From NCBI GenBank assembly GCA_001513105.1, contig LFSH01000059.1, forward strand, positions 11,375 to 75,374: a DNA stretch of 64,000 bases, read 5' to 3'. Source of the stretch: Clostridiales bacterium DTU070 (GTDB taxonomy: Bacteria > Bacillota > Clostridia > DSM-8532). Made by a program: the position numbers and the translations under genes. Under the pieces are notes generated by a model, which saw only the letters and a list, made by a program, of their open reading frames with translations, did no database searches and was not told the DNA's origin. Positions 1 through 7,426 of this stretch are shown piece by piece. Numbering within the stretch: the stretch's first letter is position 1; each line of letters opens with the position of its first letter.

Positions 1-1
1 T

Positions 2-355
2 CCTGTCTACCTGGGAAATGCTTATGACCGGGACATGAGTGCATCAGTGGTGTGTCCTGCAAATATAGGTGCCTGTGTAACAAACGCATGCGGAGGCAAT
101 ATAGGGGCATGTGCCCTGAATGCATGCGGAGCCAATGCCGGGGCATGTGGTGTTAACGGCTGCGGAGTTAAAGGCGGTGCGTGCGGCGTTGACGGTTGTC
201 CCGCAAATGGAGGTGCATGCGGAAGCAAGGCATGCGGAGGAAATGTCGGAGCATGCGGAACAGAAGCATGCGGAGGAAACGCCGGGGCATGCGGTGCAAA
301 AGCATGCGGCGGCAACACCGGTTCCTGCGGTGCCAAGGCATGCGGCAAAAATTAA
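2..355 (+). CDS. Cys-rich repeat RiPP precursor 1 (5'-partial; true start lies upstream of the window)
   Basis: Frame is open from nt 2: PVYLGNAYDRD precedes the ORF-track Met at 35 and aligns with IEYIGNAYSRE of the next gene. Core has 17 Cys with alternating spacing 7/5. Stop TAA at 353-355. Confidence 0.85.
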   Translation, partial: PVYLGNAYDRDMSASVVCPANIGACVTNACGGNIGACALNACGANAGACGVNGCGVKGGACGVDGCPANGGACGSKACGGNVGACGTEACGGNAGACGAKACGGNTGSCGAKACGKN

Positions 356-373
356 TAATAAGGAGGTTACAGT

Positions 374-742
374 ATGAGCAATAGAATTGAATACATAGGA
401 AATGCTTATAGCCGTGAAATAACAACGACCGTTGCATGCCCTGCCAATATCGGTGCATGTATTCCGAATGCATGCGGTGCAAATGCCGGAGCCTGCGGGT
501 TGAACGCCTGCGGCGCAAATGGCAGTGTTTGCGGGGTAAACACCTGCGGAGTCAAGGGAGGCATGTGCGGAGCAGATGCATGTGCTACCAATGCAAGTGC
601 CTGCGCAGCCAAAGCCTGTGGCGGCAATGGCGGTATGTGCGGCGCAGAAGCATGCGGTGCTAACGGTGGTATGTGTGGTGCCCATGCATGCGGTGCAAAC
701 GGCGGTTCGTGCGGAACAAAGGCATGCGGCAAAAACGGTTGA
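374..742 (+). CDS. Cys-rich repeat RiPP precursor 2 (122 aa)
   Basis: AGGAGG RBS just upstream; 21-aa leader, then 17 Cys at positions 22,29,34,41...113,118 (C-x6-C-x4 eight times); paralog of precursor 1; directly upstream of a radical SAM gene. Confidence 0.9.
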   Translation: MSNRIEYIGNAYSREITTTVACPANIGACIPNACGANAGACGLNACGANGSVCGVNTCGVKGGMCGADACATNASACAAKACGGNGGMCGAEACGANGGMCGAHACGANGGSCGTKACGKNG

Positions 743-863: not shown

Positions 864-2207
864 ATGAAGTTTTCCAGGTACAATCTTATTATCCCGGATG
901 AATCCCTGCCGGAGGATATGTTTCTTTTATGCAATACATTTTCGGGTGCAACATTCTTAATAGACTCCAGCCTTAAGGAACATATTGAAAAAAGGAATTT
1001 ATCAGCGCTTGAAAAAAATACAATTGAACAGTTTATTTCTGCAAACATCCTTATTGAAAATGATGATATTGATGAAGCAAGAATACATAGTTACTTTTGC
1101 AACAAGGAGAAGTTTGATAATTCGGTGCTGTCGTTAACCATCCTGTTAACCATGGGCTGTAACCTTAGATGCATTTACTGCTATGAGGGTGCCGGAGAGG
1201 TTTCAAACGAATCTCTTAATGACGAGACTCGCAGCAATATTTTTGATTTTATCAGGACACAGGCCGAATACCGCCGTTCACGAATTGTATCCATCTGGCT
1301 TTTTGGCGGTGAACCTTTACTGGACTTCAAATCCAATATACCTTTTTTAGAAAAGGTGCAAAATTTTTGCAGGGAAACCGACAGGGAATTCTTTACACAT
1401 ATCGTTACAAATGGTATATTATGTAACAGGGAGAATTTAAAAATACTTGAGAAGCTTAACTGCCAGACAATTCAGATTACCCTGGACGGTGTAAAGGAAG
1501 TACACGATAAAAGGAGGATATATAAAAACGGTAAAGGTTCATTTGACGAAGTACTGGCAGGAATTAAAAATGTAAAAAAGCACTATCCTTTATGCGACCC
1601 TATTATACGCATAAACATCGACAAAACCAATGTAGACCGGACCCGGGAGCTGCTGCAGTTTTTGCATGACGAGGGGCTTAATTCCTGTTCCTTGGATTTT
1701 GGCATTGTCAAAGGAACCACCGCTGCGTGTGCTTCATATAAAGGTAACTGTTTTTGCGAACATGAACTGGGAGACATCCTGTATAAGCTGTGGGGAATGG
1801 CCAAACAGCTGGGGTTCCCGATATATACCAATCCAACCAGGAGAAATATGTACTGCGGCTTATACTCGGACTCATCCTTTACGATCATGCCGAACGGTGA
1901 TTTATACAAATGCTGGGATTTTGTCAACGAGGAAAAGCACAGGGTTGCCAGGATTGGCGAAGGCGGCCAGGTAACGGACACAACCTATGCCTACTTTGAC
2001 TGGATGACACGCAACCCGTACGAAATAGCAGAATGCCGGGAATGTGCATACCTTCCTGCATGCGGGGGCGGATGCGTGGGTGTGAGCTTTATGGAAAAGC
2101 AGCAATACCATGCATCGGGCTGTTATAAAATGAAGGGTGTGCTTGAGAAGCAAATAATTGAACGTTTTAAAGGTGAACTTGATGCGAAAATTTCCAGGAG
2201 TTATTAG
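864..2207 (+). CDS. Radical SAM/SPASM peptide maturase with probable N-terminal RRE (PqqD-like) domain
   Basis: CNLRCIYC (CxxxCxxC), FGGEP, ITLDG; SPASM motif MYC...GDLYKC...CRECAYLPACGGGC...C; about 80-aa N-terminal extension typical of RiPP maturases; AGGAG RBS. Confidence 0.92.
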   Translation: MKFSRYNLIIPDESLPEDMFLLCNTFSGATFLIDSSLKEHIEKRNLSALEKNTIEQFISANILIENDDIDEARIHSYFCNKEKFDNSVLSLTILLTMGCNLRCIYCYEGAGEVSNESLNDETRSNIFDFIRTQAEYRRSRIVSIWLFGGEPLLDFKSNIPFLEKVQNFCRETDREFFTHIVTNGILCNRENLKILEKLNCQTIQITLDGVKEVHDKRRIYKNGKGSFDEVLAGIKNVKKHYPLCDPIIRINIDKTNVDRTRELLQFLHDEGLNSCSLDFGIVKGTTAACASYKGNCFCEHELGDILYKLWGMAKQLGFPIYTNPTRRNMYCGLYSDSSFTIMPNGDLYKCWDFVNEEKHRVARIGEGGQVTDTTYAYFDWMTRNPYEIAECRECAYLPACGGGCVGVSFMEKQQYHASGCYKMKGVLEKQIIERFKGELDAKISRSY

Positions 2208-3990
2208 GCGGAATTTCAAACTGTTAGGAAAAGGAATAAAGCTCGGCTATGGTTTCTTTTTTGTTCAGCTTGCCTGGGTTTTGTTCGGGAGCTTTATTAC
2301 CGTTCTTAACGTCGTCATTCCGAAATTTCTTATCGAGGCAATACAGAATCAGTCAATAACACAGGCTTTTCAGATTCTGCTCCTGACTCTTGGCATCAAT
2401 CTTTCGGCGAGCGTTGCAGAGATATATTATACGCCGTTTATAGCTCTGGCCAGGGAAAAGATAAACGTAAAAATCATAGACGAATTCCTGAAAAAAAGTT
2501 TTTCGCTGGAGCTTAAATATTTTGATAATCCCGGCTTTTACGATAAATATTCCATCGTTTTTGACAACTGCTGTGACCTGGTACATTCAGCCATAAATAC
2601 ATATTTAAGCCTGATAGCATCGGTGACGCAGATTGCCCTGGTATTTTCAATCCTGCTGTGGATGAATAAAGGGATTTTGCTGGTGATGCTGTCGGTTATA
2701 TTTATTCAGCTGATGATAGACAAAAAGCGGAAAAAGATACAGTATGACTACCAGAAAAGCATTACAAAGCAGAACAGGCAGTTGAACTATTTATACCGCT
2801 TGTTTTATGTCCCTCAGTTCATGAGGGATATACGGGTTAACTCGCTTAAGTCTTTTATTTTTAACAAGAAGAATGAAGCAACTAAGGATTTGCTGAACAA
2901 TGTAAAAACAACCCATAAGAAACTCAGCATTGTAAACTTTTTTGTTTCTGTTTTTTCTCACATGGAAACCTTCTTTATTTCCCTGTACTTTGTATTCCAG
3001 GCGTACAGGGGACGCATTCTTATCGGGGATTTTTTTGTTTCGCTTAACTCATACAACACATTGAAATCCTCAATTTCCAGCCTGTTTGCAACGTATAACG
3101 CCTTTTACTCAAATGACCTGTATATAAACGAATACCTTTCATTTATGGACACGGACAGCTCATCGGCATATAAAGGCAAAAAGAAGATCAGTGCCGGGGA
3201 AATTAAGCTGATTGAGTTCATCAATGTCAGTTTTACCTACCCGAATTCTCATTCGAAGGCCCTGGACGGTATCTCGTTTTCGATTAGGAAGGGAGAAAAA
3301 ATTGCAATCGTGGGCAATAACGGCGCGGGTAAAACAACGGTAATAAAACTCCTCCTGCGGTTATATGATCCTCAGGAGGGAATAATAAGGATAAATGGAA
3401 CAGATATCAGGGAATATGATCTTGTTGAGCTCAGAAATTCAATCTCGGTACTGTTCCAGGATTTCACGATATACCCGTTTACAATCAGGGAAAATATTAC
3501 CCTGGGGAAAAACATAAGCAATGAGGTGGTGGAAGATGCCCTTGACAGGGTGGGATTGCTGAACAAAGTTAAAAGCATGCCTCTTGGTTTGGATACACCT
3601 ATTACAAGCCAAATGCTGGAAGACGGCATTGAGTTGTCGGGCGGGGAAAGCCAAAGGCTGGCAATTGCCCGCATATATGCCGGCAACAAGGGGTTTATTG
3701 TACTGGATGAGCCTACAAGCAACCTGGATCCGTACATTGAACAGGAACTTTACGAAGCCATACTCAGCAATCTTGAGGAAAGTACGGTCATAATAATTTC
3801 CCACCGGCTCACATTTACATACAGAATGAATAAGATAATATGTATTGTTGACGGAAAAATAGCTGAGGAAGGTACGCACAGGGAATTGCTCAGGAACAGG
3901 AACGGGTACTACAGCGGAATGTTTGACCTGAGTGTGGATAAATATTTTGAAAAGGAACAGTCAAAAATTCTGAAGAGTTCAAATTTTTGA
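2182..3990 (+). CDS. ABC exporter, fused permease/ATPase (no C39 peptidase domain)
   Basis: N-terminal TM helices; Walker A GNNGAGKTT, signature LSGGESQR, Walker B IVLDE; ATG 2182 with AAGGTG overlaps the end of the rSAM gene (ORF track start 2158). Confidence 0.9.
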   Translation: MRKFPGVIRRNFKLLGKGIKLGYGFFFVQLAWVLFGSFITVLNVVIPKFLIEAIQNQSITQAFQILLLTLGINLSASVAEIYYTPFIALAREKINVKIIDEFLKKSFSLELKYFDNPGFYDKYSIVFDNCCDLVHSAINTYLSLIASVTQIALVFSILLWMNKGILLVMLSVIFIQLMIDKKRKKIQYDYQKSITKQNRQLNYLYRLFYVPQFMRDIRVNSLKSFIFNKKNEATKDLLNNVKTTHKKLSIVNFFVSVFSHMETFFISLYFVFQAYRGRILIGDFFVSLNSYNTLKSSISSLFATYNAFYSNDLYINEYLSFMDTDSSSAYKGKKKISAGEIKLIEFINVSFTYPNSHSKALDGISFSIRKGEKIAIVGNNGAGKTTVIKLLLRLYDPQEGIIRINGTDIREYDLVELRNSISVLFQDFTIYPFTIRENITLGKNISNEVVEDALDRVGLLNKVKSMPLGLDTPITSQMLEDGIELSGGESQRLAIARIYAGNKGFIVLDEPTSNLDPYIEQELYEAILSNLEESTVIIISHRLTFTYRMNKIICIVDGKIAEEGTHRELLRNRNGYYSGMFDLSVDKYFEKEQSKILKSSNF

Positions 3991-4003: not shown

Positions 4004-4375
4004 GTGTGCGTGTCAATTGCTAACTACTTTATTATTCCTGAAGCCATTATAACCGTTGGCATTGTCCTTGTAGCCATACTGTCGATGCAGAAACAGAAAA
4101 TAGCAGATTCAAAAGGCGATATTTCAATTGGTTCTCTTAACAAGGCCGAAATACTTAAGCTGTCGCAGGAGGAAATTAAAAAACTCAGGAAAGTTGTCGC
4201 TACTGCAGCAGGCTGTCTGTTTCTTATAACTTTGCTGATTGCTTTTGGTGCGATATTCCTTTGTGAGTTATCCCTGGTCAGCATTGTTACCTGCCTGGTT
4301 TTGCAGGTTCTTTTAACAGTCATTTGCGGAATACCGTTTATGAAGAGAATCAAGGCATTCAGGCATGTTTCATGA
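4004..4375 (+). CDS. Small multi-pass membrane protein, possible immunity/accessory protein
   Basis: AAGGAGG RBS before GTG; three hydrophobic segments; immediately follows the exporter stop. Confidence 0.75.
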   Translation: MCVSIANYFIIPEAIITVGIVLVAILSMQKQKIADSKGDISIGSLNKAEILKLSQEEIKKLRKVVATAAGCLFLITLLIAFGAIFLCELSLVSIVTCLVLQVLLTVICGIPFMKRIKAFRHVS

Positions 4376-5893: not shown

Positions 5894-7426
5894 TTACCTG
5901 GACGATTCAAGAATGCATTTCATAATATTTTCCTGGCTTGCTTCAGCTTTATTCATCTCTCCCACAATCCGGCCTTCATTCATAATGTAAATCCTGTCGC
6001 ATATCCCCAGAATTTCAGGCAGTTCGGAAGATATCAGAACAATGCATTTCCCCTGTTCCGCAAGTTTGTTGATAATGCTGTAAATCTCATATTTTGATCC
6101 CACGTCAATCCCGCGGGTGGGCTCATCGAGGAAAATAACGTCGGGTTCTGCAAAAATCCATTTGCTCAGTACAACTTTTTGCTGGTTGCCGCCCGACAGC
6201 TCCCCTGTTTTCTGATATATTCCTGATGCTTTTATGTTCAGCCGCTGTCTCAGTTCTTCACTGACAATGGTTTCAAGCTCCTCGCTTATTACGAGGTTTT
6301 TACTGACCTTATCGAGTCTTGCCAGCGTTATATTCCTCTTTATATTATCAATCAGTATCAGTCCCGCGGTTTTCCGGTCCTCGGTAACATATGCCAGGCC
6401 TTCCTTTATGGCATCCCTGACGCTTTTGAGCACCAGTTCCTTTCCGTCCTTTATAACTGTTCCGCTTATTTTTCTTCCGTATGCCTTGCCGAACAGGCTC
6501 ATTGCAAGCTCTGTTCTTCCTGCACCCATAAGCCCCGCTATGCCGACTATTTCTCCGCTCCGCACATTGAAACTTACATGGTTTATACGCATCCTGCTGT
6601 CGTCGAGCGGATCATATACAACCCAGTCCTTTACTTCGAACCGCACTTCCCCGATATTCGGGGTCCTTTCCGGGAAACGGCTGACAAGTTCCCTTCCCAC
6701 CATTCCTTTAATAATCCTGTTTTCAGAAAACTCATCCACATCCCGTTTCAGCGTTTCAACAATCATACCGTCACGTATAACGGTGATTTTATCAGCTATA
6801 CGGATGACCTCGTATATTTTGTGTGAAATTATTATGCACGTAATTCCGTGTTCCTGGTTCAGTTCGAGAAGCAGGTTAAGCAGATTATTCGAGTCTTCAT
6901 CGTTAAGCGCAGCTGTAGGCTCATCAAGAATAAGGAGTTTCACATTTTTTGAAAGTGCTTTGGCAATCTCCACAAGCTGCTGCTTTCCAATCCCTATATC
7001 CATAACCAGCGTATCCGGGTCTTCTGTCAACCCCACTTTTTTCATCAGCTTCCTGGCTTCCTGCCTGGTATAATCCCAGTTTATAATGCCGTTTCTGGCA
7101 CATTCATTGCAAAGGAATATGTTTTCAGCAATTGTCATAAAGGGATTCAGAGCCAGCTCCTGGTGTATGATGGCGATTCCCACCTTCTCGCTGTCCTTCA
7201 CATTCCTGAATTCGCATTTTTTCCCTTCAAAAACAATTTCCCCGGAGTATGTACCGAAAGGATAAACCCCGCTGAGCACATTCATCAGCGTGGATTTTCC
7301 CGCACCGTTTTCTCCGACCAGTGCATGGATTTCTCCCTTTTCAACCTGCAGATTTACATTATCCAGTGCTTTTACACCAGGAAAGGTTTTTGTAATGTTC
7401 CTCATATCAAGAATAATTTCCGCCAT
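5894..7426 (-). CDS. gguA: Multiple monosaccharide ABC transporter ATP-binding protein
   Basis: Tandem ABC domains, [29 protein letters not shown]; start MAEII preferred (track start 7441). Confidence 0.92.

Follow-up and report, generated by a model that had tools for sequence, protein, structure and literature searches.

The left end of the window (the stretch of 64,000 nucleotides that was analysed) carries an operon in which two precursor genes are followed by genes for a radical SAM (rSAM)/SPASM maturase, an ABC exporter and a small hydrophobic protein (Table 1). The DNA upstream of the operon holds ~1 kb of AT-rich spacer and genes for tRNA-Pro, an AraC-type regulator and sugar transport. 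The tRNA gene, tRNA-Pro(CGG), is encoded on the minus strand (L008:10489-10564), and the ~800 bp between it and precursor 1 are AT-rich and non-coding; assembly L017 has a Mu-type transposase (rve) in place of a sugar-permease gene farther upstream.

Table 1. Genes of the operon and the cores of its two precursor peptides, in window coordinates.
Feature	Position	Strand	Remarks
Precursor peptide 1 (CefA-like)	1..355	+	Clipped by window edge; full product 121 aa
Precursor peptide 1 core	53-352	+	100 aa, 17 Cys
Precursor peptide 2 (CefA-like)	374..742	+	122 aa
Precursor peptide 2 core	437-739	+	101 aa, 17 Cys
CefB-like radical SAM/SPASM peptide maturase	864..2207	+	447 aa; NF038107 574 bits
ABC exporter, fused permease and ATPase	2182..3990	+	Pfam ABC_tran and ABC_membrane only; overlaps end of maturase gene
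Small hydrophobic protein	4004..4375	+	123 aa; downstream of exporter; no family match

The true ATG of precursor 1 is located 10 nt upstream of the window (G000:C30:11365) and is preceded by an AAAGGAG ribosome-binding site, and the same full-length product is called by gene callers on other assemblies. The ATG at position 35, from which the sequence-only reading had begun this peptide, is therefore an internal Met. Precursor 2 has an AGGAGG ribosome-binding site 7 nt upstream. The leader of precursor 1 (peptide A) is MQKNPVYLGNAYDRDMSASVV and that of precursor 2 (peptide B) is MSNRIEYIGNAYSREITTTVA; the two peptides carry the leader motifs YLGNAY and YIGNAY, for which the general form is Y-[LI]-G-N-A-Y. 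As translated from positions 2-352 and 374-739, both peptides are rich in Gly, Ala, Cys and Asn. We consider it very likely that the two genes are tandem precursors of a RiPP.

Cys accounts for 17% of the cores and its spacing is the same in both, (7,5)x8, which corresponds to eight 12-residue C-x6-C-x4 units and a terminal CGKN. The earlier description of 17 Cys at identical 7,5 spacing was thus exact by translation. Spacings of only 5 and 7 were obtained in 0/200,000 shuffles of the core, and with all spacings being 5 or 7 neither core contains a CC, CxC or CxxC motif. The residue three positions after each Cys (i+3) is polar throughout: these residues read NNNNNNKDNKNENKNKN in peptide A and are identical in peptide B save for His at the 14th site, which confirms for both cores the claim that this position is held by Asn or else by Lys, Asp, Glu or His. 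All 11 Asn, the sole Asp and the sole Glu of each core, along with the sole His of peptide B, are found at i+3 from a Cys; the chance of all 11 Asn hitting the 17 i+3 sites is ~7e-10. The i+3 residues of the short loops run N N N D K E K/H K in both paralogs, and those of the long loops N N N K N N N N (N), with Lys only in the fourth. The change along the peptide from Asn-rich N-terminal to charged C-terminal short loops, which had been remarked on from the letters alone, is real in both paralogs.

Comparison of cores A and B gave 69% nucleotide identity overall and 44% at third codon positions, with no indel; of the codon differences, 39 are synonymous and 28 non-synonymous. By this measure the paralogs are old, and such divergence in the absence of any indel argues that the register was kept by selection and not by recent copying. 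The claim that the register is under selection accordingly holds between old paralogs, and also across 18 diverged relatives (see below). Tandem Repeats Finder reported a 144-nt (four-unit) higher-order period in precursor 1 (window 53-330), which suggests an old duplication of a four-unit block. The 12-residue units inside one peptide share 44-83% of their DNA; units 1 and 5 of precursor 1 are alike (75% in DNA), both starting CPAN. Position-specific exceptions to the repeat, such as the central C-x-x-K-G-G-x-C-G-x-D, are seen again in distant relatives. Together, the divergence of the paralogs without indels, the diversity of the units and the exceptions common to distant relatives indicate, at the level of sequence, that the peptide has a defined, position-specific design, and they exclude a homogenised repeat.

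A natural variant of precursor 1 lacks 36 nt, corresponding to one 12-residue unit (ACGGNTGSCGAK, window 302-337), and retains 15 Cys with the register intact. The resulting 109-aa product without ACGGNTGSCGAK is encoded in two DNA assemblies (L016 and L017). Contigs from two metatranscriptome runs (X2 and X6) likewise lack exactly 36 nt within peptide A, and run X1 has a matching loose end. These one-unit deletions indicate that copy number varies by whole 12-residue modules while the register is kept.

The maturase has a CxxxCxxC motif (CNLRCIYC) at residues 99-106 and a SPASM region comprising Cx18...Gx4C at 331-350, CxxCx5CxxxC at 391-404 and C420, the seven SPASM Cys being at 331, 350, 391, 394, 400, 404 and 420. 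Its N-terminal domain of ~85 aa is a probable RRE, and the protein aligns to the ranthisynthase CteB (5WHY) with an E value of 2e-28. As in ranthipeptide loci, an rSAM protein with CxxxCxxC and a SPASM motif adjoins a leader-bearing Cys-rich precursor. For the ABC exporter, the start at 2182 is the choice of gene callers on other assemblies (the longest ORF begins at TTG 2158), and searches of Pfam and NCBIfam found no peptidase C39 domain in it. The 123-aa protein encoded downstream has no NCBIfam or Pfam family and does not resemble the small ORFs that occupy this position in two related clusters (L018 and L021). It is a possible immunity or accessory protein, and was not counted as a core part since it is not conserved in related clusters. 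The cluster of this genome yielded neither a leader protease nor a conserved gene for immunity. A hairpin between the second precursor gene and the maturase gene (~777-814) was, within 126 nt of context, no stabler than shuffled controls (z = -0.5).

Comparison with curated families placed the system beside CefA/CefB. The best model for the maturase was NF038107 ("Cys-every-fifth radical SAM/SPASM peptide maturase CefB"), with 574 bits against a cut-off of 600, and the peptides scored 26.4 bits (peptide 1) and 25.3 bits (peptide 2) on NF038108 (CefA), for which the cut-off is 30. The second-best family for the maturase was TIGR04463 (CrpC family; 235 bits, cut-off 525), and other NCBIfam scores were 223 for Clo7bot, 144 for PapB (below its cut-off of 340), 117 for SCIFF and ~60 for the sactisynthase models (RumMC 61). 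No NxxcB-type family was among the 25 best NCBIfam matches listed for this protein. A genuine CefB/CefA pair in another genome of the same class reached 793 and 84 bits, respectively. The window maturase is 51% identical to the true CefB over its full length, and the true CefA precursor (L011) reads MSNYLGNPYGNLEITG-CGGQACVGKACGAVGCVADGC..., with the leader motif YLGNPY, nine consecutive Cys spacings of 5, and i+3 residues Q/K/V/D/Q/N/D/E/D.

The two systems have in common the leader YLGN[A/P]Y, the unit C-x-x-polar-x and the position of the precursors directly upstream of the maturase. Unlike CefA, however, the window peptides have two extra residues in each second loop (x-[G/S]-x in place of x), so that their period is 12 (7+5) rather than 5 and their Cys do not fall at every fifth residue; their cores are also longer (17 Cys, ~100 aa), and Asn is dominant at i+3. 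The maturases of the 7/5 relatives described below scored 482-563 bits on NF038107, all below its cut-off. Since the 7/5 maturases all lie at 480-575 bits, they represent a distinct sister subfamily of CefA/CefB which is unnamed by curated models. CefA/CefB itself is already catalogued in NCBIfam, by bioinformatics alone, and what is new here is the sub-threshold 7/5 branch. Our literature search found no study of the CefA/CefB family (Cys-every-fifth, NF038107/8) or of the CxxN motif, and no chemically characterised member of the CefA/CefB-type "cysteine ladder" peptides.

Eighteen precursors with the leader [YF]-x-G-N-x-Y were gathered by a profile search, a word search and inspection of the neighbours of related maturases. 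The profile search was exhaustive over 1.8 billion representative proteins and gave 24 matches, about half of which lacked the leader and were discarded as unrelated low-complexity Cys repeats; the word-index search with peptide B gave only 2 relatives, and the search for related loci with the maturase only 2 loci. The sources of the relatives include Lachnospiraceae MAGs from water-buffalo reticulum and other metagenomes. Variable Cys spacing among homologs would have counted against the register, and this was not what was seen: 172/189 spacings in the 18 relatives are 5 or 7, and 149/171 consecutive spacing pairs alternate 7/5. Their long loop has the form C-[GA]-[AG]-N-x-[G/S]-x-C, with Gly at position 5 in 63/84 and Ser in 20/84, and their short loop the form C-G-A-[N/K/D/E]-[A/G]-C. 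Asn occupies i+3 in 70/84 long and 50/88 short loops, and nearly all of the rest are K, D, E or H; the residues accepted at i+3 across the relatives comprise N, K, D, E, H, Q, V, L and R. At i+4 comes one of A, G, I, V, L or T, never a conserved polar or acidic residue. Where a long loop spans 8 instead of 7, the added residue sits after the i+3 site.

Every 7/5 relative examined has two precursor genes followed by the rSAM/SPASM maturase gene and then the ABC exporter gene. Two Lachnospiraceae clusters have an ABC-2 ATPase and permease directly upstream of the precursors (L009:1470-2866 and L010:270-1666), a pair which looks like an immunity system and which is not in the window cluster. Bordering a distant 7/5 cluster (L019) are genes for a LytTR response regulator and an AgrB homologue (L019:731-1465 and 6883-7007), which hints at quorum-sensing control of that cluster in its organism. 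The first precursor of another distant cluster (L018:124-351, MAKKQEYLGNVYGINN...) has the irregular spacing 5,8,5,7,6, with a tail rich in Pro and Asp (DPDPPIDPDPP); the members of a precursor pair can thus be unlike each other. Several relatives are decayed (P0002; L021:4001-4333 and L021:6016-7601). In one (P0002), the precursor is fused in frame to the C-terminal end of an ABC exporter, the maturase and most of the exporter having been deleted; in a second (P0001), the tail of the precursor leaves the repeat frame; and in two more (L021 and L022) the exporter gene is broken into several short ORFs.

No other copy of the cluster was found in the 55 other genomes of the same family that were searched, and among 401 genomes of the class the one other match at E <= 1e-90 was a true CefB. 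This patchy distribution suggests horizontal acquisition. The exact peptide B sequence is present in 97 blocks of public assemblies, and the habitat is anaerobic digesters and rumen. Contigs assembled from four metatranscriptome runs, with the labels anaerobic digester and soil, span the precursor genes as well as portions of the maturase and exporter genes, which suggests that the operon is expressed. In all four runs there is a contig gap from ~825-900 to 1050-1240, after which coverage resumes inside the maturase gene; the gap fits a more abundant precursor mRNA, although contig data cannot show absence.

We infer thioether formation, the Cys-to-i+3 topology, the carbon attacked and the function of the product as follows. 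The leader motif Y-[LI]-G-N-A-Y would be recognised by the N-terminal domain of the adjacent rSAM/SPASM enzyme, which at each C-x-x-[N/K/D/E/H] unit would form a ranthionine-type bond between the sulfur of the Cys and a carbon in the i+3 side chain, the carbon attacked in Asn probably being the beta carbon. The product would hold up to 17 in-line four-residue rings, with a loss of 34 Da on a core of ~8.6-8.8 kDa, and the spacers that alternate behind the rings (one residue or x-[G/S]-x) would give rise to the 5/7 rhythm. The ABC transporter would then export the product, perhaps for a bacteriocin-like role. We give this explanation as a whole a probability of about 0.6. Of its parts, conversion of the Cys to thioethers by the rSAM enzyme is probable in its own right, and the Cys-to-i+3 topology is somewhat favoured.

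The choice of the i+3 residue as acceptor follows from the register. The polar residue is fixed at +3 from the upstream Cys, but lies 2 (short loop) or 4 (long loop) residues from the next one; the 17 Cys are matched by 17 i+3 residues; no Asn occurs before the first Cys; and the peptides end ...CGKN or ...CGKNG, at or one residue past the last i+3 Asn. With the non-polar i+4 residue, these features favour C-x-x-N as the unit and argue against NxxcB-like N-x-x-C and PapB-like CX3D motifs. Supporting the thioether reading is the fact that the best matches of the maturase outside CefB are to thioether-forming or Cys-rich-peptide families, among which CrpC is the nearest characterised enzyme. Weighing against it are the score of 235 on which the CrpC analogy rests, well under the cut-off of 525, and the Lys and His at i+3, which have no precedent as ranthionine acceptors among the characterised enzymes compared. 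Moreover, the conservation of Asn could mark a role in recognition or folding instead of that of acceptor. The CxxN thioether ladder first proposed from the sequence thus remains a hypothesis, but is the best reading by its context and by analogy to CrpC.

Within the same operon and enzyme class, the links might instead be sactionines, with sulfur bound to an alpha carbon in small in-line rings as made by GggB and QmpB, and with the i+3 residue serving recognition or conformation. A catalytic-site-proximity profile of six CteB positions separates sactisynthases from ranthisynthases, and GggB and QmpB, which are non-hairpin sactisynthases, resemble ranthisynthases in both full-length sequence and active-site profile (PMC10288494), so that sequence placement alone leaves room for alpha-carbon chemistry. 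The tolerance of N, K, D, E, H, Q, V, L and R at i+3 in the relatives also fits a backbone target. We nevertheless consider sactionines unlikely, since the sactisynthase models score much lower for this maturase (RumMC, 61 bits) than do the CrpC-family (235) and PapB (144) models, CrpC itself gives non-dissociating ranthionine links, and Asn at 120/172 i+3 sites exceeds what a backbone-only target would need. Quite unlikely, in our view, are long-range links, for example between each Cys of one 12-residue unit and an acceptor in an adjacent one, that would staple a solenoid of 12 residues per turn. The strict 12-residue period, the invariant small residue at long-loop position 5, the shifts in copy number by whole 12-residue units and the low-confidence beta-helix proposed by AlphaFold3 for CrpA are all consistent with such a structure; the CrpA authors, however, judged that beta-helix to be incompatible with their mapped links (PMC13692751). 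When structure prediction was applied here, as the sequence-only reading had suggested, AlphaFold2 yielded neither a fold nor strands, both for peptide B with a six-sequence alignment (mean pLDDT 34) and for core A as a single sequence (40), a result limited in strength by the shallow alignment, and a PDB sequence search of the core returned no related chain. In addition, the period of 5 in the sister CefA implies that the shared unit is CxxXx and not a 12-residue coil.

The Tenebrio molitor antifreeze protein, a beta-solenoid, has Cys spaced 6/6, disulfides inside each coil and a TxT ice-binding face. Although the window peptides likewise have a 12-residue repeat with two Cys per repeat, their spacing is 7/5, and they differ in their RiPP context and in having no PDB match and no predicted fold. 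The earlier suggestion of a disulfide- or metal-stabilised solenoid is therefore without support in the predictions, the PDB search or the period of CefA, although a mature cross-linked product could still be regular. It is also conceivable that the peptides carry no thioethers and function as metal-binding (metallothionein-like) or disulfide-rich molecules, while the rSAM enzyme does something else or nothing. The high Cys content of the cores is compatible with this, as are the induction of the Crp cluster on pyrite and the speculation of the CrpA authors on metal binding (PMC13692751). Against it, the leader motif is common to these peptides and CefA, an rSAM/SPASM enzyme and an exporter are linked to the precursors in all relatives, the usual close Cys pairs (CC, CxC, CxxC) are lacking, the conserved i+3 Asn would have no role in metal binding, and disulfides are unlikely to be stable in anaerobic digesters or rumen. 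We regard action without thioethers as very improbable.

A bolder form of the ranthionine-ladder reading, which we hold to be doubtful, is that 17 consecutive Cys-to-(i+3) rings on ~100 residues, mostly to Asn with some to Lys or His, pack as a 12-residue thioether-stapled rod or solenoid that acts as a small protein rather than as a classical bacteriocin. If so, this would be the most heavily cross-linked ranthipeptide known, the C-x-x-N orientation would be new among described enzymes and the Lys and His acceptors would be without precedent. As to function, nothing in our analysis shows that the product is not a bacteriocin, as had been supposed from the sequence. Should each CxxN become a ring, the maturase would set up to 17 thioethers per substrate in an undocumented orientation and on undocumented acceptors (Asn, Lys, His), which would be relevant to users of PapB-type enzymes as peptide-stapling tools; if not, the locus is one more uncharacterised RiPP cluster of anaerobic-digester and rumen Clostridia. 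In either case it offers a clean test, as it combines a short leader, paralogs that differ at 28 positions in the same register, a natural one-unit deletion and metatranscriptome contigs that suggest expression.

Among characterised systems, Methanococcus voltae has CrpC, an rSAM/SPASM protein with an RRE and three [4Fe-4S] clusters. It modifies CAGM, CAVD, PCAGD and CPLV(L) motifs in CrpA, a Cys-rich protein of repetitive sequence, and its authors read the products as Cys-to-acceptor ranthionine rings (PMC13692751). In CrpA the Cys always comes before the acceptor, the links are non-dissociating, and "C-X-X-Q/D" was flagged as a suggestive motif (PMC13692751). The modifications of CrpA map to motifs of four or five residues that start at or beside a Cys. 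The window system is similar in its rSAM/SPASM enzyme with a probable RRE, its repetitive Cys-rich substrate and the short Cys-first motifs proposed as its sites of modification. CrpA differs in being archaeal, in its size (29 kDa), its 17-residue repeat, its 47-residue N-terminal recognition region and its acceptors, which are M, D and V and not Asn. PapB joins Cys to Asp or Glu in CX3D, tolerates 0-6 intervening residues and, in making freyrasin from PapA, places several in-line Cys-to-acceptor rings on one core, as is proposed here for another rSAM/SPASM enzyme (PMC9413430). However, its motif is at i+4, its acceptor is a carboxylate and its rings number six, and the window peptides have no conserved acidic i+4 residue. 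The streptococcal NxxcB forms its thioether between Cys and the beta carbon of an Asn that lies upstream, tolerates Ala, Gln and Asp there (PMC9389541), and is thus similar to our proposal in its Asn acceptor, the carbon used and the distance of three residues. The orientation in NxxcA is the reverse, N-x-x-C with Asn upstream, and N-x-x-C never occurs in the window peptides. The analogy to NxxcB and PapB drawn by the sequence-only reading therefore holds for the kind of thioether chemistry but not for its geometry. The chemistry that we propose would be unprecedented for the CefA/CefB family, for the C-x-x-N orientation and for Lys and His as acceptors, yet these enzymes make it well precedented in kind.
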